64,000 bases of DNA, taken from sequence record MT119360.1; one strand, 5' to 3'. Source of the stretch: Enterococcus phage nattely. The stretch's first letter is position 1. The number at the start of each line of letters is the position of its first letter. Positions 4,625 through 37,216 of this stretch are shown piece by piece. The translations under genes and the position numbers were made by a program. The notes beneath the pieces were generated by a model that did no database searches, was not told the origin of the DNA, and saw only the letters and a list, made by a program, of their open reading frames with translations.

Positions 4625-6451
4625 ATGGAATTCACAGAGAAAAATTTGTTTAACCCAGGAAAAAATTCGTTTGTTAAGGATGTATTAGAACAAAATGGAG
4701 TTAATCCAGAAATGTTTTTAAATGGAAAAAATTATGAAGATGAAATCGTAAGTCGTCCAAATTTGTATTTTAACATGTTTAAAGCTGTAAATTTAGTTAA
4801 TAAACATGTGGCAACTAATTCTTCAATTGGAATTTTAGTTGATGATGATGCTGATGGAATGACTTCAGCTTCTGCCATGGCGCGCGTGTTATTTAAGATG
4901 GGTCACCATGGAGCTAAATTCATTTTACACGATGAGAAAGGACATGGACTCCATGGAGAAGTTGAAAAAATCATTGAACAGAAAATTGATTTTTTAATTG
5001 TGCCAGACGCGGGCTCAAATGATTTTGAAGATCAAAAATCTGTGTTAGAAGCTGGGATCGACTTATTAATTCTTGATCACCATGATATGGATAATGAAAG
5101 ACCAATTTTAGAATTGGAAGCATTATATGATGGTTATGTATTAGTAAATAATCAATTATCTTATAATATCAAAGGTGTTAATAAAAATTTAGTTGGTGCA
5201 GGAATGGTGTATAAATTTGCACAAGCCGCTGATGAAGAATTTGAAACAGATAAATTTTCGAAAGATATTGTTGATTTAGTTGCGGTTGGACAAATTGGAG
5301 ATTCTAGTGACGTGTCCGATCTTGAAGTTCAATTAATTGTGCGAGAAGGATTGGATAATTTAAAAAATCCACTATTAGTTGAAGCTTTAAAAAATCGTAT
5401 TGTAAAAGGTCAAAAAATTGCTCCAATTAATATGTCGTTTGACATTATTCCATATATTAATGCAGTTACGCGTGTTGGTAAAAAAGAAGAGAAAATTGAA
5501 TTAATAAAAGGATTAATTGGTTTTTGGCCAGCGGATGAAACTGTAATTATTCAAAAGAGAAGAAAAAATAAATTAACGAAAAAATTCGAAATTCGTGAAG
5601 AACCATGGACTCACTATGGAATCTTAATGGATAATTTAACAAAAATAAAAGCTCGTCAAAACAAAGAAATTGACAAAGTTCTCAAAAAAATTGAGGATCC
5701 TTATAATGAAAACATTGTAATAGCGGCCCTCAATGAAGATGAGATTGAATATCGGTCCATTACCGGTCTCATTGCTAACAAATTGGTTTCTCAATATAAT
5801 AAACCGGCTCTTGTATTAATTTCTGAAAATAATGGAACGAAATTTAGTGGTTCAGCTCGTGGACATGAAAAAACTGTTTCTTCATTTAGGCAATGGTGTT
5901 TAAACACAGAATTATTTGAATTAGCACAAGGTCACGACAATGCATTTGGTGTTATTATTGATGATTTAAAATTAGAAAAATTAATGGAGAATAGTGCTTT
6001 AGAAACTGTAGTAAATGAAGTGACATACGAAGTTAATAAAATCTATGAAAATGAAACAAACATTGAGGAAATTAAAATGATCAATGATAACGCATGGATT
6101 TTTGGTGGCTCCATGGCGGCACCCAAATTCGGATATAAAAACTTAGTGATTGGACGTAATTGTGTATCACAAAGAGGTTCTGTTGTAACATTCTTCGACC
6201 ATGGTCTAGAATTTATTATGTATAAACAACCAGCTGGTTTAGTTGATTCATTTTTAGAAAAAATGGGATTTGAACAAAAATTAGTTGTGAACCTTGTCGG
6301 ACACGCAAGTAGAAATGAATGGAATGGTAGAGTAAAAGAACAAGTTGTTTTAGATGATTTTGAAATGATGACATTAGCAGAAAGTGGAATTGAAGATAAG
6401 GCACCAACTTTCGATCCTAACTTTGATGACGATGGAAATTTAGTTTTTTAA
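4625..6451 (+). CDS. DHH-family phosphoesterase, RecJ-like ssDNA exonuclease
   Basis: DHH motifs DDDADGMTSA, LDHHD, GHDNAFG; ATG at 4625 preferred over the TTG at 4622. Confidence 0.65.
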   Translation: MEFTEKNLFNPGKNSFVKDVLEQNGVNPEMFLNGKNYEDEIVSRPNLYFNMFKAVNLVNKHVATNSSIGILVDDDADGMTSASAMARVLFKMGHHGAKFILHDEKGHGLHGEVEKIIEQKIDFLIVPDAGSNDFEDQKSVLEAGIDLLILDHHDMDNERPILELEALYDGYVLVNNQLSYNIKGVNKNLVGAGMVYKFAQAADEEFETDKFSKDIVDLVAVGQIGDSSDVSDLEVQLIVREGLDNLKNPLLVEALKNRIVKGQKIAPINMSFDIIPYINAVTRVGKKEEKIELIKGLIGFWPADETVIIQKRRKNKLTKKFEIREEPWTHYGILMDNLTKIKARQNKEIDKVLKKIEDPYNENIVIAALNEDEIEYRSITGLIANKLVSQYNKPALVLISENNGTKFSGSARGHEKTVSSFRQWCLNTELFELAQGHDNAFGVIIDDLKLEKLMENSALETVVNEVTYEVNKIYENETNIEEIKMINDNAWIFGGSMAAPKFGYKNLVIGRNCVSQRGSVVTFFDHGLEFIMYKQPAGLVDSFLEKMGFEQKLVVNLVGHASRNEWNGRVKEQVVLDDFEMMTLAESGIEDKAPTFDPNFDDDGNLVF

Positions 6452-6467
6452 TAAAAATGTGGAGAAT

Positions 6468-6520
6468 GTTGTTTACATTCTCCTTTTTTATGATATAATA
6501 TAAATATAAATAAAAAAAAA
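6468..6520 (+). promoter_or_regulatory. terminator hairpin fused to sigma-A promoter
   Basis: hairpin ggagaatgttgtttacattctcc plus T-run; TTTACA inside the hairpin; TATAAT downstream. Confidence 0.55.
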
Positions 6521-6546
6521 AAGAAAAAAGAAAGTAGGAATTTATT

Positions 6547-7155
6547 ATGGCAAAAGTAAAATATTCAAAATATGATGTATATTCATTCTTAGATGACAAA
6601 CAGGTTGAAATCACTGATAAAAAATTGAAACCAATTCAAGATGATATTAAAAAATTAAAAGAAAATTATTTAGTAGAAAAATTTCCAAAAGAACAAATTG
6701 AAAAAATTAAAGTAGCACTAATTAATTATGTAGAAGCAACGCGTGACGTTCAATTTGATTATTCAACATATGCATCAAAAGTATATGATTCGTCTTCAGT
6801 TCTTGTAAATTTATTCAATACAGCTAAAGGCAGCAACCGCGCATTAGAAGATCAAATTATGCTTGATATTACAAGCACAGTTGATTGGTCCGATTGTCCA
6901 GATTTAGAACAATTAAAAAGTGTTGAGCGAACGACTCGGAGCGAAATTCGTGAAGAATTTCAAAAATTAGAAGCGATGGTAAAAAGATGTAAAGATGGAG
7001 CACAAGCAGTTTTACAATTACAAAAATTAGGATTCGATACTTCATCAATTAAATCAACATCGGGCGACACGTCAGTATTGGTATTAAATTTAAATAATGA
7101 TTTACTAGGTTTGCCTGAAGAAAATTCTGAAGTCGTAGAAAATTCTCAATTTTAA
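6547..7155 (+). CDS. hypothetical protein
   Basis: ORF with RBS AAGTAGGAA. Confidence 0.5.
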   Translation: MAKVKYSKYDVYSFLDDKQVEITDKKLKPIQDDIKKLKENYLVEKFPKEQIEKIKVALINYVEATRDVQFDYSTYASKVYDSSSVLVNLFNTAKGSNRALEDQIMLDITSTVDWSDCPDLEQLKSVERTTRSEIREEFQKLEAMVKRCKDGAQAVLQLQKLGFDTSSIKSTSGDTSVLVLNLNNDLLGLPEENSEVVENSQF

Positions 7156-7168
7156 TGGAGGTTCTACA

Positions 7169-7555
7169 ATGATTGAAAATAATAAAATTGAAGATAGTAA
7201 AGTTGAGAAAATAGTAGATTTAATTGAATCATTATTAATTGTTAGTGAAATTAATGAAGAAACAGAAGTGTGGATTGAAACACTAACTCCTTCGCATGGA
7301 CAATGTCACTTACCGGTTACTGGTCTTTCCATGGACGGTGAAAATGATCTCTTCTTACTGTTGGATATTGATAAAGACCATGGAGTGAAAGTTCCACAAC
7401 TGCTTAAACATTTACAAAAATATATTGATGAGAATGAAGTAGAAGAATTATGGTATTGGAGTGGAATTAACGAACCTTTTACAGTTGATTCATATTATAT
7501 TATGGAAGATAACACTTTAGTTTTTAGTGATTATAATGGTGAACGTGATGAATAG
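7169..7555 (+). CDS. acidic hypothetical protein
   Basis: ORF with GGAGG RBS. Confidence 0.5.
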   Translation: MIENNKIEDSKVEKIVDLIESLLIVSEINEETEVWIETLTPSHGQCHLPVTGLSMDGENDLFLLLDIDKDHGVKVPQLLKHLQKYIDENEVEELWYWSGINEPFTVDSYYIMEDNTLVFSDYNGERDE

Positions 7556-8018
7556 AAGAATTGAAGGTCCATTAAAACATATTATTGATGATAAAAATAG
7601 GTATCTTGCACGAGATGTAAATTTTGTTCCAAAATTAAAAGATGAATTAATTAAGACATTTAGGCTGCTTTGTGATGGTGATGATAATGTTAGATTAGTT
7701 TATGATACTCATTTTAAACAATCATATATTTTTCATGCTCGAAAAGATGGAAATTTAATTTTTCCAATATTAGGTTTTTCTTTACAACAAAATGAAGATG
7801 AAATATGTGAAACCATTTTCGACCCATATAAAATGAGATATAACTATAACGTGTATATTATTGTTCATATTTTTGGTGAAGAAATATATCAATTGTCTAT
7901 TGACCAAATATCAGTTTTTCATGATGAAAAAGGTGAAGAAATACCTATAGAGATTAAATTTTTAAATGGTAACACAAGAGAATTTAGTCGTTACAACAAA
8001 CTATTAGATTTATTTTAA
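7548..8018 (+). CDS. hypothetical protein
   Basis: ORF; internal ATG at 7548 preferred over the track start 7527. Confidence 0.4.
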   Translation: MNRRIEGPLKHIIDDKNRYLARDVNFVPKLKDELIKTFRLLCDGDDNVRLVYDTHFKQSYIFHARKDGNLIFPILGFSLQQNEDEICETIFDPYKMRYNYNVYIIVHIFGEEIYQLSIDQISVFHDEKGEEIPIEIKFLNGNTREFSRYNKLLDLF

Positions 8019-8021
8019 AAA

Positions 8022-8080
8022 ATGAGACTTTGTAAAAAAACTATTTACAAAGTCTCATTTTTTATGTATAATAAATATAT
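8022..8080 (+). promoter_or_regulatory. terminator hairpin with embedded -35, then -10
   Basis: hairpin tgagactttgtaaaaaaactatttacaaagtctca plus T6; -35 TTTACA in the 3-prime arm; TATAAT in gtataataaatat. Confidence 0.6.
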
Positions 8081-8308
8081 AATAAATAAACGAATAGAGG
8101 TAAGAAAATGCTTAATGAACAATCACCTTTAACTGTAGAAGAAGAAGAAATTGAATTACAAATTCAATCAATAGAGATGATTATGGAAATTGAAGAAATA
8201 ATTGATAAAAATGGAAAAATTTATGGAAAAACTTTATAAAAACTGTTTACAAAACATAAAAGTTAATGTATAATAAATATATAATAAATAAACAAAAGAA
8301 AGTAGGAA

Positions 8309-8509
8309 ATGACAATGATGAAAAATTTAGAAAAATTCAGTTTAAACGCAGGAGATAAAGTATTAATTGATGGTGATGTATATTTAATCTTAGATAGAAA
8401 AATTACTCCATACAACATTGGAATGTATCAATTACAAGATCCAACTGATGAAAAACATAGATTTTGGCAAGCTGCTCAAATCACAGAACAAATTTCAACA
8501 AAATTATAA
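8309..8509 (+). CDS. hypothetical protein
   Basis: ORF after the promoter at about 8250 with RBS AAGTAGGAA. Confidence 0.5.
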   Translation: MTMMKNLEKFSLNAGDKVLIDGDVYLILDRKITPYNIGMYQLQDPTDEKHRFWQAAQITEQISTKL

Positions 8510-8681
8510 AAAAAAAGAAAGAGGTAAATAAAAATGAAAAAACAATACCAATCTAAAGAACAAGAAATTTTAAACCAAGCTAAAACAGTATCAAAATTAG
8601 AAAGCTTGAGTGCAAAAGAAAAAATTGCAGTATTAAAATTTTTAGAAAAGAAACATGTAAACATGGGAGGAAATTGGTAAC

Positions 8682-8882
8682 ATGAAAGAAAAATTAGAAT
8701 CAGGAATGGCAGTAATGGTTAATGTGGACGATGGTCAAACTTTAATCAAGGATAAAATTGGAATTATTACAGAAGTTTTTCCTCAAAAATATACAGCATT
8801 AACTGGTTTTCATTATGAAGTTTCACTTTTAAATTGTGGAACTGTTGTTAGATGTAATAAAAAAGAAATTAAGAAAATGTAG
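8682..8882 (+). CDS. hypothetical protein
   Basis: ORF with GGAGG RBS. Confidence 0.45.
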   Translation: MKEKLESGMAVMVNVDDGQTLIKDKIGIITEVFPQKYTALTGFHYEVSLLNCGTVVRCNKKEIKKM

Positions 8883-8953
8883 ACCGATAGGTTTACATTT
8901 TCACTATTTATTGATATAATATATTTATAAAATAAATTAAATTGGAGGTATTT

Positions 8954-9469
8954 ATGAATTTAGTTATTGAGGGTCCTAAAGCAAGTGGAAAAAGCACAAT
9001 TTCTCACCACTTTATTGAAAAATATTTAACGACATATGACCATATGAGCTCCGATAGCGATAACTCATTAAAAGGACATTTAAATTTATTAAAAGGCAAA
9101 AAAGGTGAATCATTAAATCATGTAATAGATCGTTTTTCAGTTGGGGAAATGATTTATCCTAATTTATATGGCCGTGAAGGAAAATTAAATTTAGATGAGT
9201 TTAATGTCACAATGAGTTCAGAAAACACATTATACGTTATTCTTTATTCTTCGTCTGATCAATTATTATTTGATCGAATTGAATGGAGAGGAAGAAACAC
9301 TGATGATGAAGATCATGATTTAGTGTCAAAATCAAATTTTGCATTTAAAATGATTGGTGAATCATTGAAATATCGTGAAAATGTATTATTATTTGATGTT
9401 GCAAAAGTAGGATTAAAAGAAATTATTAAAATAATTGAAGATAAATTGGAGGAGTTAAACAGATGTTAA
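8954..9469 (+). CDS. P-loop deoxynucleoside/deoxynucleotide kinase
   Basis: Walker A IEGPKASGKST; DRFSVGE resembles the dNK ERS/DR motif; ATG at 8954 with GGAGGT RBS. Confidence 0.5.
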   Translation: MNLVIEGPKASGKSTISHHFIEKYLTTYDHMSSDSDNSLKGHLNLLKGKKGESLNHVIDRFSVGEMIYPNLYGREGKLNLDEFNVTMSSENTLYVILYSSSDQLLFDRIEWRGRNTDDEDHDLVSKSNFAFKMIGESLKYRENVLLFDVAKVGLKEIIKIIEDKLEELNRC

Positions 9470-10308
9470 AATTTAAAAATGTAAATGATGCATGGATTCA
9501 TTTGGCAAAAAATGTCGTTTATAAAGGTGATGTTGTTGGAAATACAAAAGAATTAACAAATGTATCATTCCAAATTGAAAATCCATTAGATAACATTGTA
9601 AAAAGCCGTCACAATTTTTCATTAACATATTATTTAGGTGAAACTGTATGGTATGGTGCTGGTAAAGACGATGTTGAATTTATTAGTAAATTTGGCCGTA
9701 TTTGGAATCATTTAACAGATAATGGAATTTATAACAATAGTGCTTATGGTTATATCTTAAAAAATAAGCATGGTTTTGACCAAATCGAAAAAGCAATTGA
9801 ATTATTACGTGGAGATCAATATAGCCGACGAGCAGTGTTAAATATTAATATTCCACGGCGTGATGTTATTGAAACAAAAGATGAAATGTGCACAATTGCA
9901 TTACAGTTTTTAATTCGCGATGGAAAATTAAATATGACTGGAATTATGCGTTCAAATGATTTATGGACTGGTACTCCATATGATATTTTTTATTTCACAA
10001 CATTACAACGATATGTTGCATATAAATTAAATATTGATATGGGAACATATACGCATTTTGCAACTTCTTTACATTGTTATTTACGTGATGAAGAAAAATT
10101 AATTAAATCTTTTGAAAATGATGCAAATAATATTTATGCTGGTATCGATATTAATGGAATGCGTTTATTATTACAAGCTGAAGAATTATATTATACAACA
10201 CGTAAAGAAGAAAATGCAAAATTAGAATTAGTTAAATTATGTAAAGAACGTAATATTATTAAAGGAAAAGAAGTTGAAAAAACTATTGAAAAACTATCTG
10301 CTATTTAG
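9463..10308 (+). CDS. thymidylate-synthase-fold pyrimidine hydroxymethylase, best match to T4 gp42 dCMP hydroxymethylase
   Basis: SRRAVLNI / EMCTIALQFLIRDGKLN / MRSND block aligns to T4 gp42 DSRRGIMIY / FMCTNTVQYLIRDKKIN / MRSND; Asp in TPYDIF aligns with gp42 Asp179, where ThyA has Asn177. Confidence 0.7.
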   Translation: MLKFKNVNDAWIHLAKNVVYKGDVVGNTKELTNVSFQIENPLDNIVKSRHNFSLTYYLGETVWYGAGKDDVEFISKFGRIWNHLTDNGIYNNSAYGYILKNKHGFDQIEKAIELLRGDQYSRRAVLNINIPRRDVIETKDEMCTIALQFLIRDGKLNMTGIMRSNDLWTGTPYDIFYFTTLQRYVAYKLNIDMGTYTHFATSLHCYLRDEEKLIKSFENDANNIYAGIDINGMRLLLQAEELYYTTRKEENAKLELVKLCKERNIIKGKEVEKTIEKLSAI

Positions 10309-10336
10309 CAGATAGTTTGTATAAAGGAGAAGAGTT

Positions 10337-10753
10337 ATGAAAATTAAAATTAATATGTTTAGTGATGAAGAAATTTATCAACCAAAAAGAGCACATTATA
10401 ATGACGCAGGAGCCGATGTTCGCTCAACAGAAGAAATGTTAATTTGGCCAGGAGAAACTCGAAAAATTCCACTAGGTTTTGGATTAGAATTACCAGATGG
10501 ATATATGGGAGTTATGATGAGTCGTTCAGGATTAGCTTCAAAAGGATTAGTTTCACAAAATGCACCGGTTGATTCTGGATATAAAGGTCAAGTTCACGCA
10601 ATTATGACAAATGTATCAGATGAAGTTATTAAAATTGAAAAATATGATAGAATCGCACAATTAGTAATTATTCCAGTTATGGTTGCAGATTTTGTCACAG
10701 AAACAGGTAGTGAAAGAACCAGTGATGGTTTTGGAAGTACAGGTTTAAAATAG
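10337..10753 (+). CDS. dut: dUTP diphosphatase (trimeric dUTPase)
   Basis: motifs AGADV, MSRSGL, VDSGYKG, DGFGSTG in canonical order; 138 aa. Confidence 0.85.
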   Translation: MKIKINMFSDEEIYQPKRAHYNDAGADVRSTEEMLIWPGETRKIPLGFGLELPDGYMGVMMSRSGLASKGLVSQNAPVDSGYKGQVHAIMTNVSDEVIKIEKYDRIAQLVIIPVMVADFVTETGSERTSDGFGSTGLK

Positions 10754-10762
10754 GAGGATTAT

Positions 10763-11821
10763 ATGGAAATTTTATTATTGAATGTCGCAAATAACATTAC
10801 GGATTTTCGAACAGTATCAAGTGGGGAAACAGTTTATCTAAAACAAATGTTAGAACAGTTAGGCCATGGAGTTACAATTGCTTCAAATAAGAATGGTGAA
10901 TATGCGGTTGCATTTGAGGAAATTGAGGATATTAACAATTTTGACAAAGTAGTTGTTTTACCTGCTTCACTGAACTTTTTCGGTGGTGTAGAAAACCCGA
11001 CAATTATTAAAAATTATAAATTATTAGCAAAATATAATGGAACTATTAATATTTTGCAAACTGACGCACGTTTGCCATTTAAGCAGTTGTGGCCAGCAAT
11101 TGAGAAGCGGGGATGGGGATATAAAAAAGAAGAAGTTTGGATTAATGCCCCAATTAAAGTAATTGCACAATCAAAAAATTTAGATGAAGTTAAAACACAA
11201 TATGAAAAAGAAATTTTCAATAACATTGAGTTTACACATTTTCCAATTGAGCGTTATGCTGGCATTGTGGCGCTAATGAATCCAATTGATGAAGTCGAAG
11301 AAAAAGAACATGATTTAGTTTATTATGGTTCATTCCGTGGAGGCAATCGTGCTGCTAAAATGGCAGAATTTTTATGTGGAAACATTGTAGAAAAATTAGA
11401 TGTCCACGTATTTGGAACAATTCGAGAAAAACAATTAGCTAAAAGTAGCGATGGTCCATTTCCTTCGTTTGGTAAAAAGATGAAAATGAATGAAATTAGA
11501 CAAGAGGTTAGCAAAAGTTTCTCAACTTTAATTATTGGTGAAAAATTTTATAATAATGCAATGTTGACAGTGAGGGTTTGGGAAACATTAAGTAGCGACG
11601 CAGTAGTTCTCATTGACAACGATTTTGACTCTTACCATAATTTATTTCCTAATTCGCCATGGCGGTATGTTGAAAAAGAAGAAGATCTTATCGAAGTAGT
11701 AAAATCTCTTAAAGATGATGAAAATAAGAGAAAATTAGCGATTCAAGAGCAAAAAGAAGTGTTAGAAAAAATGATTGATTCTTCTCAATGGTTAAGAGAT
11801 TTTGAAAATATTTTAGCTTAA
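10763..11821 (+). CDS. bgt: DNA beta-glucosyltransferase (T4 BGT homolog, GT-B fold)
   Basis: full-length collinear similarity to T4 beta-glucosyltransferase: MEILLLNVANNITDFRTVSSGETVYL vs MKIAIINMGNNVINFKTVPSSETIYL, NFFGG, TDARLPFKQLWP vs TDIRLPFSQSWP, YGSFRGGNRAAKMAEFL vs YGGSFRSGQRESKMVEFL, LRVWETLSSDAVVLIDNDFD vs LRVWETMASDAVMLIDEEFD; 352 aa vs 351 aa. Confidence 0.85.
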   Translation: MEILLLNVANNITDFRTVSSGETVYLKQMLEQLGHGVTIASNKNGEYAVAFEEIEDINNFDKVVVLPASLNFFGGVENPTIIKNYKLLAKYNGTINILQTDARLPFKQLWPAIEKRGWGYKKEEVWINAPIKVIAQSKNLDEVKTQYEKEIFNNIEFTHFPIERYAGIVALMNPIDEVEEKEHDLVYYGSFRGGNRAAKMAEFLCGNIVEKLDVHVFGTIREKQLAKSSDGPFPSFGKKMKMNEIRQEVSKSFSTLIIGEKFYNNAMLTVRVWETLSSDAVVLIDNDFDSYHNLFPNSPWRYVEKEEDLIEVVKSLKDDENKRKLAIQEQKEVLEKMIDSSQWLRDFENILA

Positions 11822-11860
11822 CGGTTTACGTTAAGCTTTTTTTATGATATAATATAACTA
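11822..11860 (+). promoter_or_regulatory. terminator hairpin fused to promoter
   Basis: gcttaacggtttacgttaagc plus T7; TTTACG -35 in the loop; TATAAT. Confidence 0.55.
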
Positions 11861-11892
11861 TAAATAAATTAGAAAGAAATGGAGAGAAATTT

Positions 11893-12417
11893 ATGACGGT
11901 TCAGTTTAAAGCGAAAGGACATGAAGATAACATTATTCACTTATATTCAGATGGTGGTTGTCGGTCAACTGCTAAAAAAGGTGAAACTATAAAAGAAACA
12001 GATAAAAGTGCTTATGCATTCTTCTTAAAACAAGGTGGAAATGAAAAATTAGATGGGCAAGCAAGTTATGGTAAAACAAATAATAATCAAGAAATTATGG
12101 GATTATTAATGGGCTTACGCGCTATTAAACGCCCAGAATTTCCAGTTGTTGCATATTTAGATTCAGCTTATGTTGTTAACTGTTTACAAGCTGGCTGGTG
12201 GAAGAAGTGGAAAGCTAATGGATGGACGAAAAAAGGTGGATTAGCAAATGCTAAAGAATGGAAAGAATTAATTGAAGAATTAGAACGTTTTCCATTTTTT
12301 AGAATTGAAAAAGTTAAAGGACACAGTGGCTTTGCAGATTATAATGATTTAGTTGATAAACACTTAAATAAATTAATGGATGAATTACCTGAAATTGGAA
12401 AGGGAAATGTTTTATGA
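11893..12417 (+). CDS. rnh: ribonuclease H (RNase HI-like)
   Basis: YSDGGC N-terminal motif and C-terminal GHSGFADYNDLVDKH; 174 aa. Confidence 0.75.
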   Translation: MTVQFKAKGHEDNIIHLYSDGGCRSTAKKGETIKETDKSAYAFFLKQGGNEKLDGQASYGKTNNNQEIMGLLMGLRAIKRPEFPVVAYLDSAYVVNCLQAGWWKKWKANGWTKKGGLANAKEWKELIEELERFPFFRIEKVKGHSGFADYNDLVDKHLNKLMDELPEIGKGNVL

Positions 12418-13376
12418 TATATTATGGAGAGCCATATTTTGAACTATTTTCATATGAGGCGACTGATAAAGCAAGAAATGACACTTGTAAAATATTAAAC
12501 TCCATGGGGTATTCACCTTTAAAATTATCTTGTTTTTCAGACGTGAACATTGAGAAAGCTGATGAAGAATTAGCTAACATTGAGGAAAATGACATAATTC
12601 TCTTACAATATCCAACTTACAGTGGAGCAGATTATGAAAAGAGATTAATTGAAATTTCTCATAAGAAAAAAGCAAAAATCTGTGCAATTGTTCACGACTT
12701 AGAATCAATAAGATTCTATGGAAATGATAGTGACATTGAGATTTTGAATGGTTTCGATATTATATCTCTTCCCTCCATGGAGATGTATAAAAAACTCTTA
12801 AAACAAGGACTAAAAACAAAAGTAAAGATACAGTTAATTTGGGATTTTCTCGCCATGGATAATCAACAATGGTATGATACAAATTCGGACATTGTCTTTG
12901 CTGGAAATTTAACAATGGAAAAGAGTAAATGGATAATGGATGTAGATTTTCCTATGTTGGTGTATGGCGACAATATAAATAATTTAATTTTTAATGATGA
13001 TGTAAAATATTGTGGTAAAAAGAATGATTTGGAATTAGTAAAAGAAATTGGTGGACAAATTGGATTATTATGGGAAGAAGGATTATATAAAGATTATTTA
13101 AAATATAATTTATCGTTTAAGCCTTCTTTATATCTTGCAGCAAATTGTCCGATTATTGTTCCAGAAAAAACCCATATTGGAAATATTGTAAAAACATACA
13201 AAATAGGCGTAACTGTTAAAGATATTAAAAGACAAACAATGTTGGATGCTGTTATTAAATTAAAAGATAATTTAAACTTTTATCAAGAACGTGTTTCAAC
13301 ATTTGGAGAAACAATTAGAAATGGGCAAAATATGAAAACGTTAGTTGAAAGTATGGTGAGAGAAATTGAAAATTGA
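12414..13376 (+). CDS. putative GT-B glycosyltransferase (C-terminal GT4-like nucleotide-sugar binding region)
   Basis: DIVFAGNLTMEKSKW and LYLAANCPIIVPEKTHIGNIV resemble GT-B donor-binding motifs; start overlaps the rnh stop (ATGA). Confidence 0.4.
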   Translation: MIYYGEPYFELFSYEATDKARNDTCKILNSMGYSPLKLSCFSDVNIEKADEELANIEENDIILLQYPTYSGADYEKRLIEISHKKKAKICAIVHDLESIRFYGNDSDIEILNGFDIISLPSMEMYKKLLKQGLKTKVKIQLIWDFLAMDNQQWYDTNSDIVFAGNLTMEKSKWIMDVDFPMLVYGDNINNLIFNDDVKYCGKKNDLELVKEIGGQIGLLWEEGLYKDYLKYNLSFKPSLYLAANCPIIVPEKTHIGNIVKTYKIGVTVKDIKRQTMLDAVIKLKDNLNFYQERVSTFGETIRNGQNMKTLVESMVREIEN

Positions 13377-13623
13377 AATGTATGTTTTTGATAAAGTTGA
13401 GGTCGATTATGAAAATTTCACTAATACTGAATATGGAGAACAATGCAAAATTTATCGATTCTCGCTAGTTGGGTTAAATTCAGAAATAAAATCAAAAATT
13501 TATTCAATTAAATTTAGAAAATTATTAAAATATCAATGGTATGTTGATTTACAAATTTGGATTATGAAAATGAGAAAGAAAACATTTGTGCAAAATGTAT
13601 TAGGAAGGGAATACTATGGATGA
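13366..13623 (+). CDS. hypothetical protein
   Basis: ORF overlapping the upstream stop. Confidence 0.4.
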   Translation: MKIEMYVFDKVEVDYENFTNTEYGEQCKIYRFSLVGLNSEIKSKIYSIKFRKLLKYQWYVDLQIWIMKMRKKTFVQNVLGREYYG

Positions 13624-13908: not shown

Positions 13909-14517
13909 ATGGCAAAATTTACATTTATGTATGGAACTATGAAAAGCGGAAAAAGTATGGAGTTAATTAAAACTTATACAAATTATTTAGTAAAAGATCA
14001 AAAACCATTGGTGTTAAAAAGTGCAATTGATACACGTGACTCCAATACAGTTGCTACACGACTAGGCTCTGCAATTACATGTCAGCTATTAGGACAAAAT
14101 CAAAATATTGCAGATTTTTTACAACAAGATGGTCGTAATAATCCTCCTGTTATTTTGATTGATGAAGCACAATTTTTAACAAAATCACAAGTTATCGAAT
14201 GTGGTGTTCTAGTTGATACGCAAAATATTGATGTAATATGCTTTGGTTTGAAAACTGATTTTACTAATCATTTATTCGAAGGAAGTAAAGCTTTAATTGA
14301 AGAAGCTGATAAATTAGTGGAAATTAAAACATTATGCGCTTTTTGTAATAAAAAAGCAACCCATAATTTATTAACTGAATTAAGAGAAGATGGTTATCGT
14401 TATGCTGTTGATTCAGAAAATGTTGATGGAAATATTGTGATTGGTGATGAAGACTTTTTCCAATGCTGCAGAAAACATTATTATTTTTATGGAACTCAAA
14501 CAAGGAAAGTGCAATAA
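13909..14517 (+). CDS. tdk: thymidine kinase
   Basis: P-loop YGTMKSGKS; C-terminal zinc cysteines CAFC...CCRKHY; 202 aa. Confidence 0.85.
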   Translation: MAKFTFMYGTMKSGKSMELIKTYTNYLVKDQKPLVLKSAIDTRDSNTVATRLGSAITCQLLGQNQNIADFLQQDGRNNPPVILIDEAQFLTKSQVIECGVLVDTQNIDVICFGLKTDFTNHLFEGSKALIEEADKLVEIKTLCAFCNKKATHNLLTELREDGYRYAVDSENVDGNIVIGDEDFFQCCRKHYYFYGTQTRKVQ

Positions 14518-15358: not shown

Positions 15359-18300
15359 ATGAGTTGGTTTAGTATTCACAATCATTCGCATTTTAGTAAT
15401 TTTCGTTTAAGAGATGCAACCAATGCGCCACAAGATATTTTAAGAGTCGCAAATGAAAAGGGATTGAAAGGAATTGTATTATCAGATCACGAGACTATTG
15501 CGGGTGCACCTACATTTTTAGATAATGCTAAAAAAATGAAAGAAGAAGGTAAATTACCAGAAGATTTTGTTGCAGCAATTGGTAATGAAGCATATTTAAT
15601 TGATCGTAAATATGAGGAACCAATGAAAAACCAAGAAAAAGTTAGATATTTTCATTTTTTAATGGTAGCAAAAAATCAACGTGGTTTTGAATTTTTGAAA
15701 AAACAAACAGCTAAAGCATGGGAAAATAGCACATACTCAAGAGGTATGGAACGTGTTCCAACATTTAAAGATGATTTACAAGAATTAATGAAAGAATATA
15801 AAGGTGATGTAATTGCATCAACTGCGTGTATTGGTGGCGAACTTCCGCAATTAATCCTTAAGTTAGAAGAATTTCAAAAATCAGGTGATGCGTTACGTAT
15901 TGAAACAACAAAACGAGAGATACATTATTTCATTCAATTTTTAGTTGAAACTTTTGGCCACGATAATGTATTTTTTGAATTACAACCATCAAAACAAAAT
16001 GAACAATTGATTGTCAACAAATGGTTACCAAAAATTGCAAAAGCGTATAATATCAAATGTATCGTCACAACAGATGCTCACTATCTTACATTAGAACAGC
16101 AAGAATTTCATAAACAATATTTACAGGCATCTGAAGGTGAGCGTGAAGTTGAATCTTTTTATGCAACAACATATATTTTCTCATATGATGAATTATTGGA
16201 ATATTTCGATAAAGAATTATTAGATGAATTATGTGAAAACACATTGATTATTCGTGATATGGTTAATAATGAATTAAAATATAAACATGAGACAGTTATT
16301 CCACGATCACATATTCCACATTTTGAACAAGATGAAAATGTGATGCAAAAAATTGATGAGACAAAATATCCGAACATTTATAAGATGATGAGATCTTCGG
16401 TTATTGAAGATAGATATTATCATTTTAAAGTTATGAAAGGTTTTGTTGAAAAAGAACAAGAATTTAATGATGAAAATTTAAGTAGAATTGATTTAGAATA
16501 TAGTGAACTTCAAGCAATTAGTGAACAATTAAATCAACCGATGACGTCGTACTTTTTGGCAATGACAGAATTTGTTGATATTATGTGGGAATATTCATTA
16601 GTTGGGGTTGGACGTGGTTCTGCAGTATGTTATTATACAAATTATTTATTAGATATTGTTCAATTAAATCCAATTAAATATGATTTACCATATTGGAGAT
16701 TTTTATCTCGTGAATATGTTGGAGAATTTCCAGATATTGACGTTGATGCTCAAGGTAGTGAACGTGCAAATATTATTGAAGGTGTAAAAGAAAAATTTGG
16801 ACATGAAAATGTGTTAAATATTGGAACTTACACAACTGAGGGACCTCGAGCAGCATCATTAACCGCATGTCGTGCATTCGGTTTAGATCCGGATACAGCA
16901 CAAAATATCACAAATGCAATTCCGAGTGACAAGGGGTTCGCTTGGCCATTACAAGACGCATTTTTCGGAAATGAAAAAGAACACAGAAAACCAGATAAGC
17001 AATTTATTTATATGGTAAATGAATATCCAGGACTGCAGGAGTTAATGTTACAATCTCAAGGTTTAGTAAGTGGACGTGGACAACATGCTTCAGGTGTTGT
17101 TGTTTTTCCAGACGGATATACTTCTTTAAACACAATGATGAAGACAAGTAAAGGGTTGCCAATCACTCAGTGGGATGCACATACAACTGAGGTCGCTGGT
17201 GGAATTAAATATGACTTTTTATCAATTAATGCACTAGATAGAATTAGAGCCGCAATTGATATGTTGTTAAAAGATGGTAAAATTGAATGGCAAGGATCAT
17301 TACAAGAAACTTTCAATAAATATTTTCACCCGGACGTTTTAGATATGGAAAGTCAAGAAATGTTTGATATGCTATTTAATGGAGAAATTATTTCAGCTTT
17401 TCAGTTTGAAGCAAAAACAGGTAGACAAGCATTAGAAAAAATTAATGCGCGTACATTCGATCAATTAGTTGCTGCAAATTCATTAATGCGTTTATCTTCA
17501 GATGGAGAACAGCCAATTGATAAATACATTCGTTATAAAAATGATTTAAACGAATGGGAAAAAGATATGGACGAATATAATTTAACTGAAGATGAAAAAG
17601 CAGTTATGCACGAATTATTAGATAAAAAATTTGGTGTGTGTGAAGTTCAAGAATCAATTATGAAAATTGCAATGCATGAAAAAGTAGCAAAATATAATTT
17701 GAGAGAAGCAAAAGGATTACGTAAAGCTTCAGCGAAAAAAGACCCAACAATTCAAGTTAAACAAAAAGAATTATTCTTTAAAAAAGGTAGAGAAAATGGA
17801 ACTAGTGATAATTTATTAAATTATATTTGGAATGAATGTTATGTTCCAACATTTGGTTATTCATTTTCAGAACCTCACGTAGCAGCATATACAATGATTT
17901 TAATGATTGAAATGAATATTGCTTATAGATATGGGGTTCATTATTGGAAAGCAGCATGTTTGAATGTTGATGCGGGAATTATCGGAGAACTTGAAGCGGG
18001 GACAAAATACGGTAAAGTCGCAAAAGCATTATCAAATTTCCGAGAAGATGTTATTCCACCGTCAGTTAATAAAAGCGATATTGGTTTTACACCGGATCAA
18101 AATACAGGCAAAATTATGTATGGATTAAAACCAATTGTTGGTATGAATAGTAAATTAGCAAAACAAATTATTGAAGGTCGTCCATATAAAAATATGCAAC
18201 ATTTTATTGATCATAATGTTATAAATGGTGATTTAACAAATACAAAAATGGTAACATTAATTAAAAGTGGATTATTTGATGAATTATATCCAAATAGGAA

Positions 18301-19213
18301 ACAATTAATGGTAAATTTTGTTATGTATGTAGAACCATTTAAACAAAAATTGTCAACTTCAGTGATTCCAAAAATTGCACATTTAATTCCAGATAAATAT
18401 AAAGATGCAAAAGAAGCATATTTCTTTTTGAAAGAAATTAAAAGTAAAAAAGTTCATGATGAATATACGGAATATTTCTTTAATAATTTTAAAGAAGATT
18501 GTGATAAAAAAGTAACTAAAAAATATCCAGAATCATATACCTATAATGATAATGGGAATTTTATAATTGAAATTAAAGTTTTAGAAAAAGTTGTAAAAGA
18601 TAGAATGGAAAAATTAAAAGAATGGTTACAAACAGAAGACGCACTAAAAGCTGAAGCTTCACTAAGAAGAAGTGCATATTGGCAAAAATATTGTTTAGGA
18701 ACAATATCTCACTGGGAAATGGAATCAATCACATTCTATATTTCACAACATGAGTTAGAAGAATATCCAATTCATTCATTTTTCGAATTATCTAATTTCA
18801 ATGAATTACCGAGAGAGCCAGAAGTTGATGGTTGGAATAATGGACGTGGTGGTAAAAAATGGCCAAAATATAAAAGTCATGTAATTGCGGGAACGGTAAT
18901 TGACACACTTCCACAAAAAGGTATAGTTACTTTAATCACCAAAGACGGTGTTGTTGATGTTCGTGTTGGAAAAGGAAAATATCAATATTATAATAAAAAG
19001 ATCATGATTGGACAAGGTAAAGAACGTGTTAATATTGATGATACATGGTGGAAACGCGGAAATATGGTAGTTGTTGTTGGTTACCGTAGAGAAAATGATT
19101 TTTATGCTAATGCAAAAAATAGTGCATATCAACATTCAGTTATGTTAATTAAAGGACATGATGGAGAAAAAATATTTTTACAACAAGAAAAAAGAAAAGT
19201 TGAAGAAGATTAA
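15359..19213 (+). CDS. DNA polymerase III alpha-type replicative polymerase (DnaE/PolC family, N-terminal PHP domain)
   Basis: PHP motif HNHSHFS; 1284 aa, architecture of bacterial Pol III alpha. Confidence 0.8.
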   Translation: MSWFSIHNHSHFSNFRLRDATNAPQDILRVANEKGLKGIVLSDHETIAGAPTFLDNAKKMKEEGKLPEDFVAAIGNEAYLIDRKYEEPMKNQEKVRYFHFLMVAKNQRGFEFLKKQTAKAWENSTYSRGMERVPTFKDDLQELMKEYKGDVIASTACIGGELPQLILKLEEFQKSGDALRIETTKREIHYFIQFLVETFGHDNVFFELQPSKQNEQLIVNKWLPKIAKAYNIKCIVTTDAHYLTLEQQEFHKQYLQASEGEREVESFYATTYIFSYDELLEYFDKELLDELCENTLIIRDMVNNELKYKHETVIPRSHIPHFEQDENVMQKIDETKYPNIYKMMRSSVIEDRYYHFKVMKGFVEKEQEFNDENLSRIDLEYSELQAISEQLNQPMTSYFLAMTEFVDIMWEYSLVGVGRGSAVCYYTNYLLDIVQLNPIKYDLPYWRFLSREYVGEFPDIDVDAQGSERANIIEGVKEKFGHENVLNIGTYTTEGPRAASLTACRAFGLDPDTAQNITNAIPSDKGFAWPLQDAFFGNEKEHRKPDKQFIYMVNEYPGLQELMLQSQGLVSGRGQHASGVVVFPDGYTSLNTMMKTSKGLPITQWDAHTTEVAGGIKYDFLSINALDRIRAAIDMLLKDGKIEWQGSLQETFNKYFHPDVLDMESQEMFDMLFNGEIISAFQFEAKTGRQALEKINARTFDQLVAANSLMRLSSDGEQPIDKYIRYKNDLNEWEKDMDEYNLTEDEKAVMHELLDKKFGVCEVQESIMKIAMHEKVAKYNLREAKGLRKASAKKDPTIQVKQKELFFKKGRENGTSDNLLNYIWNECYVPTFGYSFSEPHVAAYTMILMIEMNIAYRYGVHYWKAACLNVDAGIIGELEAGTKYGKVAKALSNFREDVIPPSVNKSDIGFTPDQNTGKIMYGLKPIVGMNSKLAKQIIEGRPYKNMQHFIDHNVINGDLTNTKMVTLIKSGLFDELYPNRKQLMVNFVMYVEPFKQKLSTSVIPKIAHLIPDKYKDAKEAYFFLKEIKSKKVHDEYTEYFFNNFKEDCDKKVTKKYPESYTYNDNGNFIIEIKVLEKVVKDRMEKLKEWLQTEDALKAEASLRRSAYWQKYCLGTISHWEMESITFYISQHELEEYPIHSFFELSNFNELPREPEVDGWNNGRGGKKWPKYKSHVIAGTVIDTLPQKGIVTLITKDGVVDVRVGKGKYQYYNKKIMIGQGKERVNIDDTWWKRGNMVVVVGYRRENDFYANAKNSAYQHSVMLIKGHDGEKIFLQQEKRKVEED

Positions 19214-22019: not shown

Positions 22020-22241
22020 ATGACATTTGATGAAGCATTTGCAACAGTTTCTAAAAATCGTAATGTATATATGGCATTACCAACGTGGAAAGATGATGTA
22101 AAAATTTTCTGTCAATTTCCAGATGAAAAAAGCAAAATGACACATAAATATTTATATGTGGATTCGCGTTTTGGTCGCGTACCATGGTTACCGACCCAAG
22201 TTGAATTATTTAGTGATAAATGGAAGGTGGCAGCAATCTAA
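22020..22241 (+). CDS. hypothetical protein
   Basis: ORF after the promoter at about 21965. Confidence 0.45.
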   Translation: MTFDEAFATVSKNRNVYMALPTWKDDVKIFCQFPDEKSKMTHKYLYVDSRFGRVPWLPTQVELFSDKWKVAAI

Positions 22242-22942
22242 TGGAAAGAAAATTTGAAAAAGTAAGTGGATATGAAGATGTAAATATCCCATTAAGAGCG
22301 ACTCGTTTTTCGGCCGGTTACGATTTTGAAGCGGCGGAAGATATTACAATTCCTTCGTTGGTGATTGGAATTGACCAATACACAGAAAATATCAAACGAA
22401 AAATTGATGCAACAGATGATGTATCTATCACTGAAGATCAATTTGAAAAACTTAATAATATTAATAGTGAATTTGAAGATAATTCAATTTACACTCAAGC
22501 TGATGAAAAAAATTATTTGGACGTATTAACAATTATGAATGATATTTTAGATGAAGATGTGGATGCTGATACTGTTTTAGACCATTTGAATCAATTTAAA
22601 AATACATTCAAACCAACTTTAGTTCCAACTGGTATTAAAGCAAAAATGCCAAGTGATGAAATGTTATTATTATATAATCGTTCTTCAAATCCATTAAAAC
22701 GTTTCTTGTTTTTAGCAAATGGTGTTGGAGTTATTGACAGTGATTATTATAATAATGAAGGAAATGAAGGTCACATTATGTTCCAATTTATTAATTTAGG
22801 TCCCACACCGATCACTATTAAAAAAGGTGAACGAATTGGCCAAGGAATTTTCCAAAAGTTCTTATTAACGACAGATGTTGAAATTACACAAGACGTTGAA
22901 CGAACTGGTGGTTTTGGTTCGACTAATAAGGAGGAACAATAA
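22241..22942 (+). CDS. dUTPase/dCTP-deaminase superfamily protein with a roughly 100-aa insertion; candidate dCTP/dUTP pyrophosphatase
   Basis: dUTPase motifs in order: SAGYDF (I), GVIDSDY (III), RTGGFGSTN (V), with a long acidic insert between I and III. Confidence 0.55.
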   Translation: MERKFEKVSGYEDVNIPLRATRFSAGYDFEAAEDITIPSLVIGIDQYTENIKRKIDATDDVSITEDQFEKLNNINSEFEDNSIYTQADEKNYLDVLTIMNDILDEDVDADTVLDHLNQFKNTFKPTLVPTGIKAKMPSDEMLLLYNRSSNPLKRFLFLANGVGVIDSDYYNNEGNEGHIMFQFINLGPTPITIKKGERIGQGIFQKFLLTTDVEITQDVERTGGFGSTNKEEQ

Positions 22943-23235
22943 TGGAACGTAAAGTTATTCATGTGTTTTATGACAAAAATCATACAACAGACTTAGCTGT
23001 CTTGAATGTTATTGAAGAAATTGAAAGCAAATTTGATTCAAAATTAAATTTAATTATTCAACCATTAGAAGTTGAGCAAGATATTGTTATGACAAATGCA
23101 TATGGTATTCCTTTATCTTTTGAAGGTGTTTATATTATTGTATTAGATAAAGATAATAATCAAGAGCAATGTATTCATGCAAAAACAAAAATTCAAGCTT
23201 TATCTAAATTGAAAGGAACGAGCGTTTATAAATGA
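22942..23235 (+). CDS. hypothetical protein
   Basis: coupled ORF. Confidence 0.45.
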   Translation: MERKVIHVFYDKNHTTDLAVLNVIEEIESKFDSKLNLIIQPLEVEQDIVMTNAYGIPLSFEGVYIIVLDKDNNQEQCIHAKTKIQALSKLKGTSVYK

Positions 23236-37172: not shown

Positions 37173-37216
37173 AAAAAATAGGAGCCAATCGGTTAAGATT
37201 GACTCCTATTTTTATT
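37171..37216. terminator. bidirectional rho-independent terminator between the convergent early and late blocks
   Basis: aggagccaatcggttaagattgactcct hairpin flanked by an A-run upstream and a T-run downstream. Confidence 0.65.

Follow-up and report, generated by a model that had tools for sequence, protein, structure and literature searches.

We analyzed a window of 64,000 nt from Enterococcus phage nattely (MT119360.1), within which a predicted DNA-modification module occupies positions 8954-13376. The six open reading frames (ORFs) that the original prediction assigned to this module are all present at the positions expected, with strong family matches that far exceed chance, and three genes expected nearby, encoding a thymidine kinase, a second dUTPase-family protein, and another nucleoside monophosphate (NMP) kinase, were likewise located with family matches. 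These ORFs and all other features described below lie on the plus strand. The module, which includes beta-glucosyltransferase (beta-GT) and thymidylate synthase (TS) homologs, shares 97.9% nucleotide identity with phage vB_EfaS_140; with phages VPE25 and VFW, identity is about 91% across 8900-13400. All seven genes compared with VPE25 are under purifying selection (dN/dS 0.00 to 0.26).

The arrangement of transcription signals suggests that the module is divided in two. Directly upstream lies a putative sigma-70-type promoter (TTTACA-17 nt-TGnTATAAT; 8892-8920), an intergenic site with an extended -10 TG. The exact motif TTTACA-N17-TATAAT occurs 20 times between 773 and 36401, always on the plus strand, versus 0.11 occurrences expected by chance; the consensus match and intergenic position of the 8892-8920 site point to promoter function. 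A terminator-like hairpin followed by a T-run (11815-11837; 9-bp stem with 4 GC pairs, 5-nt loop, then TTTTTTT) overlaps the beta-GT stop codon and, judged by its match to consensus, likely ends or attenuates transcription of the first unit. Ahead of the RNase H and second glycosyltransferase (GT) genes is a further promoter-like site (TTTACG-17-TGnTATAAT; 11825-11853), which matches 10 of 12 consensus positions, carries the TG extension, differs from the enriched motif at one position, and may also act as a promoter. The first four genes appear to be cotranscribed as a single unit, from a strong host-type promoter as far as the hairpin after the beta-GT gene, and the last two to make up a second, putative unit.

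The first gene (8954-9469) encodes a P-loop nucleotide kinase with the deoxynucleoside kinase (dNK)/thymidylate kinase (TMPK) fold, as had been predicted. It matches PHROG 761 ("thymidylate kinase"; E = 1e-6), and its family profile matches YorR of B. subtilis SPbeta (2axp/3kb2; E = 2e-5). YorR is also the best Foldseek hit in the PDB for its AlphaFold model (pLDDT 87.8; TM 0.81), with dNK and TMPK structures next in rank. No variation is seen in the Walker A sequence (GPKASGKST), the DR motif, or the LID arginines. A GGAGG ribosome-binding site stands 5 nt upstream of the ATG at 8954; the ORF as listed reaches further 5', to a TTG at 8942. The end of the kinase gene overlaps the start of the TS homolog gene, and the two adjoin in all island variants examined, with their order flipped (TS-kinase) in L005. 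A kinase-like protein of the same kind has been annotated close to the TS homolog of phage DLP3 (PMC13326640). The nattely kinase is YorR-like and not a homolog of T4 gp1; it is a candidate 5-hydroxymethyl-dCMP (5-hm-dCMP) kinase that would serve as a functional analog of gp1.

The TS homolog (9463-10308) is predicted to be a dCMP hydroxymethylase. It belongs to Pfam family PF00303 (E = 7e-21), and the best match in a PDB search is the CMP hydroxymethylase MilA (E = 9e-26), with the T4 dCMP hydroxymethylase well behind (4e-8). Residues were called from two alignments (A1 and A4) and are given in E. coli ThyA numbering. The protein retains C146, E58, R126, R127, R166, S167, D169, H207, and Y209, and differs from ThyA by L143D and N177D. 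This combination matches the published signature of 5hmdCMP synthases (PMC13326640) and the residue state that prefers deoxyribonucleotides (PMC5175136): C146 is the nucleophile, N177D denotes cytosine, L143D denotes hydroxymethylation rather than methylation, S167 and R126 denote deoxyribo rather than ribo substrates, and the retained D169 denotes an enzyme other than a 5-hydroxy-dCMP synthase. The signature excludes an ordinary TS (Asp at 177 and 143), a dUMP hydroxymethylase (N177D), a MilA-like state preferring CMP (S167 and R126), and a 5-hydroxy-dCMP synthase (D169). It supports the original assignment of the product as a functional equivalent of T4 gp42, converting dCMP to 5-hm-dCMP. 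Identity to gp42 is only about 29%, and MilA is the nearest solved relative. The nattely allele is only 75% identical to that of VPE25, with identical active-site motifs; the TS homolog of L005 retains L143 and is predicted to be a methylase.

Between the hydroxymethylase and beta-GT genes lies a gene (10337-10753; dN/dS 0.02) for a 138-aa trimeric dUTPase-family pyrophosphatase (PF00692, E = 1e-22; NF001862, 106.6 bits versus a cutoff of 103) that retains the conserved dUTPase motif residues when aligned to the FIV dUTPase. The gene at 22220-22942 encodes a second member of the dUTPase family (PF00692, E = 2e-14), one of the Streptococcus/Bacillus type; it matches the S. mutans dUTPase (PDB 3h6x, E = 5e-31) in two blocks flanking an insertion of ~85 residues and also keeps the conserved motif residues. 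The paralogs share only 24% identity. We found no specific support for the earlier proposal that the second of these is a candidate dCTPase, since both keep all canonical dUTPase motifs. If either serves this step, gene-neighborhood conservation favors the 138-aa protein: Planchet, L005, and L008 each carry its ortholog after the kinase/TS pair, and the trio is kept in four island variants. We therefore regard the 10337-10753 product as a dUTPase and the better-placed, unproven dCTPase candidate. Searches of the phage for homologs of the T4 dCTPase gp56 and the T4 dNMP kinase gp1 found none, and both paralogs look canonical; these results count against the pathway proposed below at the step that excludes dCTP.

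The product of the fourth gene (10763-11821) is the homolog of the T4 DNA beta-GT that the original prediction had described. It matches PF09198 (E = 2e-61) and, over its full length, PHROG 7922 (E = 2e-98), and tblastn puts its identity to the T4 enzyme at 41.4% over 343 aa (E = 1e-75). Six T4 residues (E22, D100, R191, R195, R269, and E272) are all invariant in the phage protein. Its identity to the enzyme of VPE25 is 98.6% (dN/dS 0.02), and to that of vB_EfaS_140 99.7%. Homology and residue conservation support a predicted reaction in which glucose passes from UDP-glucose to 5-hydroxymethylcytosine (5-hmC) in DNA, yielding beta-glucosyl-5-hmC.

The remaining module genes encode RNase HI (11893-12417; PF00075, E = 1.5e-17; PHROG 531, E = 1e-30) and a GT-B glycosyltransferase of the Gtf3/GtfC/WbbI family (12414-13376), and the two genes overlap at the RNase HI stop codon and the GT start. 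The pair is kept in Planchet and L005, and the two genes occur together wherever this GT is present. RNase H was correctly identified as part of the locus, but it probably serves replication, through primer removal, rather than modification chemistry. The GT had no match in the Pfam and PHROG copies searched. Its PDB matches are Gtf3 of S. parasanguinis (3qkw/3rhz; E = 8.5e-20), "Glucosyltransferase 3" (9hu9; 1.7e-19), and GtfC (4w6q; 8e-15); NCBIfam models for WbbI-like beta-1,6-galactofuranosyltransferases also match (E = 1e-37), with scores far below their cutoffs, and its close homologs carry the Gtf3_N and Gtf3_C domains (PF26334/PF26337). The protein is 95% identical to its VPE25 counterpart.

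Downstream of the module are an accessory thymidine kinase for dTMP salvage (13909-14517; PF00265, E = 1e-37; PHROG 592, E = 6e-54), 100% identical to that of VPE25, and a 1284-aa DNA polymerase III alpha-type replicase (15359-19213). The latter is named from its orthologs: VPE25 and Planchet annotate theirs as DNA polymerase III alpha, and that of L005 contains PHP and DNA_pol3_alpha domains. A guanylate-kinase-like NMP kinase follows (23232-23858; PF00625, E = 1e-19; PHROG 1815, E = 1e-40; TIGR03263, 80.7 bits, below the cutoff of 160). The original prediction reported no DNA methyltransferase. This holds: no ORF scanned contains a DNA methyltransferase domain, a tblastn search with T4 Dam gave no match, and the examined sections of the VPE25 and Planchet records carry no such annotation.

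Taken together, these observations make it very probable that cytosine is replaced, wholly or in part, through a nucleotide-level, pre-replicative pathway followed by DNA glycosylation, the same logic as in T4. In the proposed scheme, dCTP would be converted to dCMP, with the 10337-10753 protein as the candidate enzyme. The TS homolog, using methylene-tetrahydrofolate and water, would convert dCMP to 5-hm-dCMP, a step with residue-level support. The YorR-like kinase, whose fold is consistent with such a role, may then phosphorylate hm-dCMP, and host enzymes would complete hm-dCTP. The phage Pol III alpha-type replicase would have to insert hm-dCTP instead of dCTP, after which the beta-GT would transfer glucose from host UDP-glucose onto the hydroxymethyl group in duplex DNA; for this last step, homology and conserved residues are joined by indirect demonstration of the product in VPE25/VFW. 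The outcome would be DNA that host restriction enzymes are unable to cut. The central claim of the original prediction, glucosylated 5-hmC in place of cytosine made by a gp42-like hydroxymethylase together with a T4-type beta-GT, is thus supported: it passed the residue-level tests and is consistent with published experiments on VPE25/VFW (PMC4999554) and vB_EfaS_140 (PMC7820071). For this phage group, we found no identification of the base by LC-MS, NMR, or nucleoside mass spectrometry in the literature, where the support is of an indirect kind.

Other modified bases would imply different roles for the same genes. Were the base a glycosylated 5-hydroxycytosine with its sugar ether-linked at C5, as in RB69, DLP3, and RL38JI, the TS homolog would be a flavin-dependent 5-hydroxy-dCMP synthase. 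The DLP3 5hodCMP synthase also best matches MilA structurally and has N177D and L143E, and DLP3 too has a nucleotide-kinase gene near its TS homolog (PMC13326640). However, D169N, which marks every 5hodCMP synthase tested, does not occur here, D169 being invariant in this phage and VPE25; the GT is a T4-type beta-GT and not an arabinosyltransferase; a search for sugar-nucleotide synthesis genes found none; and PvuRts1I, which depends on hmC or glucosylated hmC, cuts VPE25 DNA (PMC4999554). We consider this base very unlikely, and find it similarly hard to credit that 5-hmC arises after replication, from C via 5-methylcytosine (5mC), with the TS homolog a mere thymidylate synthase. That route was depicted in the 2016 VPE25 paper (PMC4999554), the gene is annotated as a plain "thymidylate synthase" in VPE25 and several other relatives, and phage systems that make it this way, pairing a methyltransferase with TET-type enzymes, are known (PMC8256090). 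It would call for a DNA cytosine methyltransferase, none of which was detected in the scanned ORFs or the examined parts of relatives' annotations, and Asp rather than Asn at 177 and rather than Leu at 143 is incompatible with a dUMP-methylating TS. Replacement of thymine by 5-hydroxymethyluracil or a glucosylated derivative, as in SPO1, SP10, or base-J-like systems, is extremely improbable. Bacillus and ViI-like phages do have dUMP hydroxymethylases in this TS subclass, and nattely encodes a thymidine kinase and two dUTPases; against this, Asp at 177 specifies cytosine where dUMP hydroxymethylases have Asn (PMC13326640, PMC5175136), bisulfite protection in VPE25 falls on cytosines (PMC4999554), and a T4-type beta-GT is an hmC enzyme.

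Within the favored pathway, two roles are candidates for the second GT: placing another sugar on glucosyl-hmC, or glycosylating hmC independently of the beta-GT. Its characterized relatives attach a hexose to a sugar already in place, and the phage enzyme may extend or supplement glucosylation. The original description of a second GT-B-like enzyme stands as to family; its link to DNA is putative. Glycosylation of a protein or cell-envelope glycan, which would place the enzyme outside the modification module, is a possibility we take seriously while judging it rather unlikely. All characterized relatives act on sugars linked to protein or lipid (serine-rich adhesins for Gtf3 and GtfC, O-antigen for WbbI; PMC4999554), the gene belongs to a putative transcription unit separate from that of the beta-GT, and in the vB_EfaS_140 assembly a 1-nt G insertion truncates it at 268 of 320 residues (it is intact in MT119360.1). 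Moreover, L005 carries the second GT without any beta-GT, beside the TS homolog with predicted dCMP methylase activity, so the enzyme may not act on glucosyl-hmC. Weighing against an off-DNA role, the gene is under strong purifying selection (dN/dS 0.06) and lies within replication or nucleotide-metabolism modules in every phage examined, including Lactobacillus myophages in which the homolog sits in the replication module between helicase/primase and dNK. T-even annotations also give precedents for both a second direct hmC GT and a sugar-extending GT.

The module and restriction-resistant DNA are not new, having been published for VPE25/VFW in 2016 and vB_EfaS_140 in 2021. VPE25 and VFW have the same gene order as nattely, and their DNA, experimentally shown to be cytosine-modified, behaves as glycosylated hmC: it resists bisulfite conversion at C and digestion by EcoRI and MspI, and is cut, incompletely in the case of VPE25, by PvuRts1I (Duerkop et al. 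2016, mBio, PMC4999554). That study noted both GTs and ascribed the modification to the beta-GT, but it did not recognize the TS homolog, kinase, and dUTPase as parts of the pathway and drew a C-to-5mC-to-5hmC route (PMC4999554). In vB_EfaS_140, the closest sequence to the nattely module, DNA refractory to several restriction enzymes was likewise ascribed to a T4-like beta-GT (Front Microbiol 2021, PMC7820071). The additions made here are refinements, namely the pre-replicative route through the TS homolog, the YorR-like kinase, the absence of gp56, and the Gtf3/WbbI-family second GT.

Compared with T4 (gp56, gp42, gp1, alpha-GT, and beta-GT), the nattely hydroxymethylase and beta-GT are homologous, keep the same catalytic residues, and are likewise encoded near each other. 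The label "T4-like" fits the pathway logic and not common ancestry of the whole module, since only gp42 and the beta-GT have homologs here; where T4 has gp1 and gp56, nattely encodes a YorR-like kinase and dUTPase-family proteins of the trimeric type. Unlike T4, nattely is a siphovirus that infects a low-GC Gram-positive host and carries a Pol III alpha-type replicase, and its second GT is of the Gtf3 family rather than an alpha-GT. By analogy, the best functional precedent for this GT is the T-even-like Beta-glucosyl-HMC-alpha-glucosyltransferase, annotated next to the beta-GT in many T4-like genomes as adding hexose to glucosyl-hmC; we found no sequence relationship between the two, the nattely enzyme matching streptococcal Gtf3/GtfC and WbbI-like models. 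The arabosyl-5-hydroxycytosine systems of RB69 and DLP3 share with nattely a MilA-like TS homolog, N177D, L143D/E, and a kinase near GT genes (Lee et al. 2026, NAR, PMC13326640). Their enzymes carry D169N and make 5-hydroxy-dCMP (PMC13326640), whereas nattely keeps D169, and their clusters encode UDP-arabinose synthesis, absent in nattely. Outside the Enterococcus group, a collection of 50,697 records contains a single Gram-positive phage with a beta-GT homolog, Lactobacillus brevis phage ATCCB (MK504445). At only 30% identity, this homolog is further from the nattely enzyme than T4-like enzymes are; the ATCCB module lacks a dUTPase, and a UDP-galactopyranose mutase comes after its beta-GT. 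As in nattely, a small kinase-like ORF and a TS homolog with the hmC signature precede the beta-GT.

This Enterococcus siphophage is large and belongs to the subfamily Andrewesvirinae. The window is AT-rich (26-31% GC in its + strand half, 1 to ~37 kb); that half carries replication and nucleotide-metabolism genes, and the - strand half carries lysis and structural genes. At the switch from + strand early to - strand late genes (~37000-38000), the GC skew flips sign and GC content moves from 0.24-0.31 to 0.32-0.38. An ORF of the tyrosine recombinase/integrase family (37215-38192, - strand; PF00589 plus a SAM-like N domain) lies at the junction of the divergent gene blocks of this phage, which is reportedly strictly lytic; the VPE25 paper noted the same (PMC4999554).

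Across 8900-13400, the sequence is 97.9% identical to vB_EfaS_140 and ~91% identical to VPE25, VFW, vipetofem and vB_EfKM29. All six ORFs named in the original prediction were recovered here on the + strand with unchanged coordinates, each with family matches: a P-loop protein (8954-9469), whose ATG is preceded by a GGAGG ribosome-binding site; a thymidylate synthase (TS) family protein (9463-10308; PF00303, E=7e-21); a dUTPase (10337-10753; E=1e-22); a T4 beta-glucosyltransferase (beta-GT; 10763-11821; PF09198, E=2e-61; PHROG 7922, E=2e-98, full length); RNase HI (11893-12417; E=1.5e-17); and a second glycosyltransferase (GT; 12414-13376) with matches to Gtf3 in the PDB (E=8.5e-20) and to WbbI-like NCBIfam models (E=1e-37), and none in the copy of Pfam and PHROGs used. 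The neighboring genes it listed are likewise present, namely thymidine kinase (13909-14517), a second dUTPase-family protein (22220-22942) and a guanylate-kinase-like protein (23232-23858). All seven genes compared with VPE25 are under purifying selection (dN/dS 0.00-0.26).

Proteins of the TS family include ordinary TS, dUMP or dCMP hydroxymethylases, dCMP methylases, CMP hydroxymethylases and 5-hydroxy-dCMP synthases, and we weighed these classes by aligning the TS homolog with E. coli ThyA, T4 gp42 and relatives (E. coli numbering). It keeps C146, E58, R126, R127, R166, S167, D169, H207 and Y209, and has Asp in place of both L143 and N177. The N177D substitution confers cytosine specificity, and an acidic residue at 143 accompanies hydroxymethylation, not methylation (PMC13326640); Asp at both positions rules out an ordinary thymidylate synthase. 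The 5-hydroxy-dCMP synthases, a class described in 2026 and typified by RB69 gp48 and DLP3 gp80, have, like our protein, a MilA-like best match, and all carry D169N (PMC13326640). Our protein keeps Asp at this position, as do those of VPE25, Enterococcus phage Planchet, the Lactobacillus brevis phage ATCCB (MK504445) and a further relative, L008, and this excludes assignment to that class. The CMP hydroxymethylase MilA has Ala and Lys at the positions of TS S167 and R126, and its A176S/K133R double mutant acquires a preference for dCMP (PMC5175136); S167 and R126 represent the deoxyribo state, ruling out a CMP-specific MilA/BcmA-like enzyme. Because it combines the catalytic Cys146, Asp at 177, an acidic residue at 143 and a retained D169, as described for dCMP hydroxymethylases (PMC13326640), with S167 and R126, the TS homolog carries, as judged from the alignment, the full dCMP-hydroxymethylase signature. 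It is only ~29% identical to its T4 counterpart, gp42.

The glucosyltransferase shares 41% identity with T4 beta-GT over 343 residues (tblastn, E=1e-75), and the T4 residues E22, D100, R191, R195, R269 and E272, which we take from T4 BGT structures to be the catalytic base and UDP-binding residues, are invariant; these active-site residues and the PF09198 match make it a member of the T4 beta-GT family. Both enzymes at the center of the original prediction, the dCMP hydroxymethylase and the beta-GT, are therefore borne out by their residue signatures. Homologs of beta-GT occur in 123 of 50,697 phage records. Apart from seven Enterococcus records, ATCCB and one uncultured 462-kb phage, these are T4-like phages, nearly all homologs thus coming from phages of Gram-negative hosts. 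Glucosyl-hmC is rare outside T4-like phages of such hosts. With T4-like enzymes the Enterococcus beta-GT shares up to 46% identity, but with that of the Lactobacillus phage only 30%, which suggests horizontal transfer across host phyla.

The DNA of VPE25 and VFW resists bisulfite conversion at C and digestion by EcoRI and MspI, but PvuRts1I, an enzyme dependent on hmC/ghmC, does cut it. The authors credited these findings to a T4-like beta-GT and also noted the second GT (Duerkop et al. 2016, PMC4999554). The DNA of vB_EfaS_140 was described as restriction-refractory, and its beta-GT was named (PMC7820071). For beta-glucosyl-5-hmC in place of C in virion DNA, the experiments on these three phages are indirect support. 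The core of our finding is already known, as both the modification and its attribution to beta-GT have been published for close relatives. The experimental result for VPE25 and VFW carries over to the window because the active-site motifs of the hydroxymethylase are all identical to those of VPE25 despite 75% amino acid identity, and we consider synthesis of glucosyl-hmC DNA by the module, following T4-like logic, very probable. Literature searches on the VPE25-type phage group turned up no study identifying the base by LC-MS or NMR. What remains is of modest value: a corrected and testable biosynthetic route, the dCTPase step, the second GT, and the exchange of GT and sugar-activation genes among relatives. 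For Enterococcus therapy phages, glucosyl-hmC affects how hosts restrict them, how they can be engineered with CRISPR and how their DNA is sequenced.

The divergence of the hydroxymethylase gene from that of VPE25 (78.5% nucleotide identity, dS 0.69) is greatest in the C-terminal extension, where nucleotide identity is 55-72% (10100-10300); the other module genes, from the kinase to the second GT, are 93-95% identical (dS 0.28-0.39). This pattern makes the hydroxymethylase gene a divergence hot spot (compared over 9400-10300) and suggests allele exchange by recombination.

Two routes to 5-hmC can be envisaged. The TS homolog goes unmentioned in the 2016 paper, which drew a path from C through 5mC to 5hmC (PMC4999554). 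The original prediction reported no DNA methyltransferase. Scans of ~45 ORFs, a tblastn search with T4 Dam and the examined parts of relatives' annotations likewise revealed none. The Planchet ortholog of the hydroxymethylase is annotated as 'pyrimidine hydroxymethylase'. Our analysis favors a pre-replicative route, through the TS-homolog hydroxymethylase and a kinase resembling YorR of the B. subtilis SPbeta prophage, over methylation followed by oxidation. This kinase is the P-loop protein at 8954-9469. It has few relatives, and a profile built from them matches YorR at E=2e-5; its structure model (pLDDT 87.8) aligns best with YorR (2axp; Foldseek TM 0.81) and then with deoxynucleoside and thymidylate kinases, and the Walker A motif, DR motif and LID arginines are invariant. 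Profile, model and motifs together uphold the predicted dNK/dNMP kinase fold, and a role as hm-dCMP kinase is plausible on the basis of the modeled structure. The protein is a presumed analog and not a homolog of T4 gp1, the dNMP kinase, because tblastn of the window with gp1 gave nothing better than E=0.17, and that in structural genes; nor was gp1 among the 50 best structures matched to the kinase model by fold.

T4 removes dCTP, and gains dCMP, with the dCTPase/dUTPase gp56, for which we found no homolog in the window (tblastn best E=4). Pfam or PHROG scans covering ~45 ORFs revealed no MazG-like protein or other dCTPase candidate of that kind. The sole candidate pyrophosphatases are two trimeric dUTPase-family (PF00692) proteins, only 24% identical to each other. 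The 138-residue protein within the module (10337-10753) has the conserved residues when aligned with its PDB match and, with a score of 106.6, passes the NF001862 cutoff of 103. The distal 240-residue protein (22220-22942) also has these residues but scores 140.5 against a curated NCBIfam cutoff of 223, a shortfall caused by an insertion: it is a Streptococcus/Bacillus-type dUTPase with ~85 additional residues, acidic in character, that separate the first conserved block from the remaining fold. The insertion may resemble an additional domain present in certain dUTPases of staphylococcal phages. Directly upstream of this dUTPase gene, and overlapping its start at the 3' end, is a 73-residue + strand ORF (22020-22241) that matches the Thoeris anti-defense Tad2-like domain (PF11195, E=5.6e-8; 33.6 bits, cutoff 25), an arrangement shared with the metagenomic relative L005. 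Canonical dUTPase motifs are present in both paralogs and offer no means of choosing a dCTPase between them by sequence. Conservation of gene neighborhood weakly favors the module-embedded protein as the candidate dCTPase over the distal one put forward originally.

The sequence TTTACA-N17-TATAAT has 20 exact copies in the window, against 0.11 expected, all on the + strand at 773-36401, in the early/replication half. They include copies at 8044, 8246, 8892, 15005, 15297, 19222 and 21960, many with a TG extension, and look like strong host-sigma-A early or middle promoters; enrichment is confined to this motif, promoter-like matches in total being no more frequent than chance (54 versus 51 expected). 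One of them (8892-8920, +) has an extended -10 and directly precedes the kinase gene. At the beta-GT stop codon there is an overlapping hairpin with a T-run (11815-11837, +), followed by a variant of the promoter motif with one mismatch (11825-11853, +). These consensus matches indicate two likely transcription units, one comprising the kinase, hydroxymethylase, dUTPase and beta-GT and the other RNase H, the second GT and small ORFs.

The second GT, anticipated as GT-B-like, belongs to the Gtf3/GtfC/WbbI family. Its similarity to Gtf3/GtfC is full-length (3qkw, E=8.5e-20, residues 20-310), and homologs 96% and 62% identical to it contain PF26334 and PF26337 (Gtf3_N/Gtf3_C). It falls short of the equivalog level for the WbbI beta-1,6-galactofuranosyltransferase (best model NF007323, 129.7 bits; cutoff 529), and tblastn found neither UDP-galactopyranose mutase (Glf) nor Planchet-type sugar-activation genes in the window. 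Characterized members of the family add a hexose to a sugar already present on a macromolecule, and beta-glucosyl-HMC-alpha-glucosyltransferases are annotated beside beta-GT in many T4-like genomes. By analogy, glucosyl-hmC could be what the second GT extends, a speculation already made in the 2016 paper (PMC4999554).

Genomic context supports a DNA-related role for this enzyme, because Gtf3-like GT genes are paired with RNase H in the window, Planchet and L005, and in Lactobacillus myophages lie between helicase/primase and deoxynucleoside kinase genes. These myophages do not appear among the 60 of 86 TS-family matches listed (E<=1e-20). Against such a role, L005 encodes a Gtf3-like GT along with a TS homolog predicted to be a dCMP methylase and without a beta-GT in the 17 kb seen, the second GT belongs to a separate putative transcription unit, and in vB_EfaS_140 it is cut short by a single-G insertion. 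The extra G falls in a G-run at column 765 of the GT gene and ends the protein at 268 of 320 residues; it represents either an assembly error or a natural loss. The gene is intact in the window and VPE25. Somewhat doubtful is the proposal that this Gtf3/WbbI-family GT acts on phage DNA, either extending beta-glucosyl-5-hmC to a disaccharide or adding a second kind of hexose to hmC. Were it correct, the mature base of these Enterococcus phages would be a form of glycosyl-hmC with uncharacterized chemistry, the product of a GT family whose known roles have so far been limited to glycosylating bacterial adhesins and O-antigen, and the differing GT sets in one slot of Planchet, 9183, L008 and L005 would amount to a family of different cytosine glycans.

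That slot, between RecJ and TK/Pol III alpha, holds differing glycosylation islands (Planchet, 5203-11731; L008, 8001-13919; L005, 5451-8963). The L005 island encodes a 330-residue TS homolog (5451-6440) with N177D but Leu at 143, which we predict from these residues to be a dCMP methylase. ATCCB (6658-10222) encodes a kinase-like ORF, a TS homolog with the hmC signature and beta-GT, followed by UDP-galactopyranose mutase, a gene order that hints at a galactofuranose-containing DNA glycan in that phage; the window has no Glf homolog. In Planchet, 9183, TJE4 and L008, the kinase, the TS homolog with the hmC signature and the dUTPase are retained, with beta-GT replaced by a PNK3P-like phosphatase, a ~545-residue NTP_transferase-domain protein and a ~400-residue GT. 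This replacement set is similar to the clusters for sugar activation in DLP3 and RB69, and suggests that these islands specify a different cytosine glycan.
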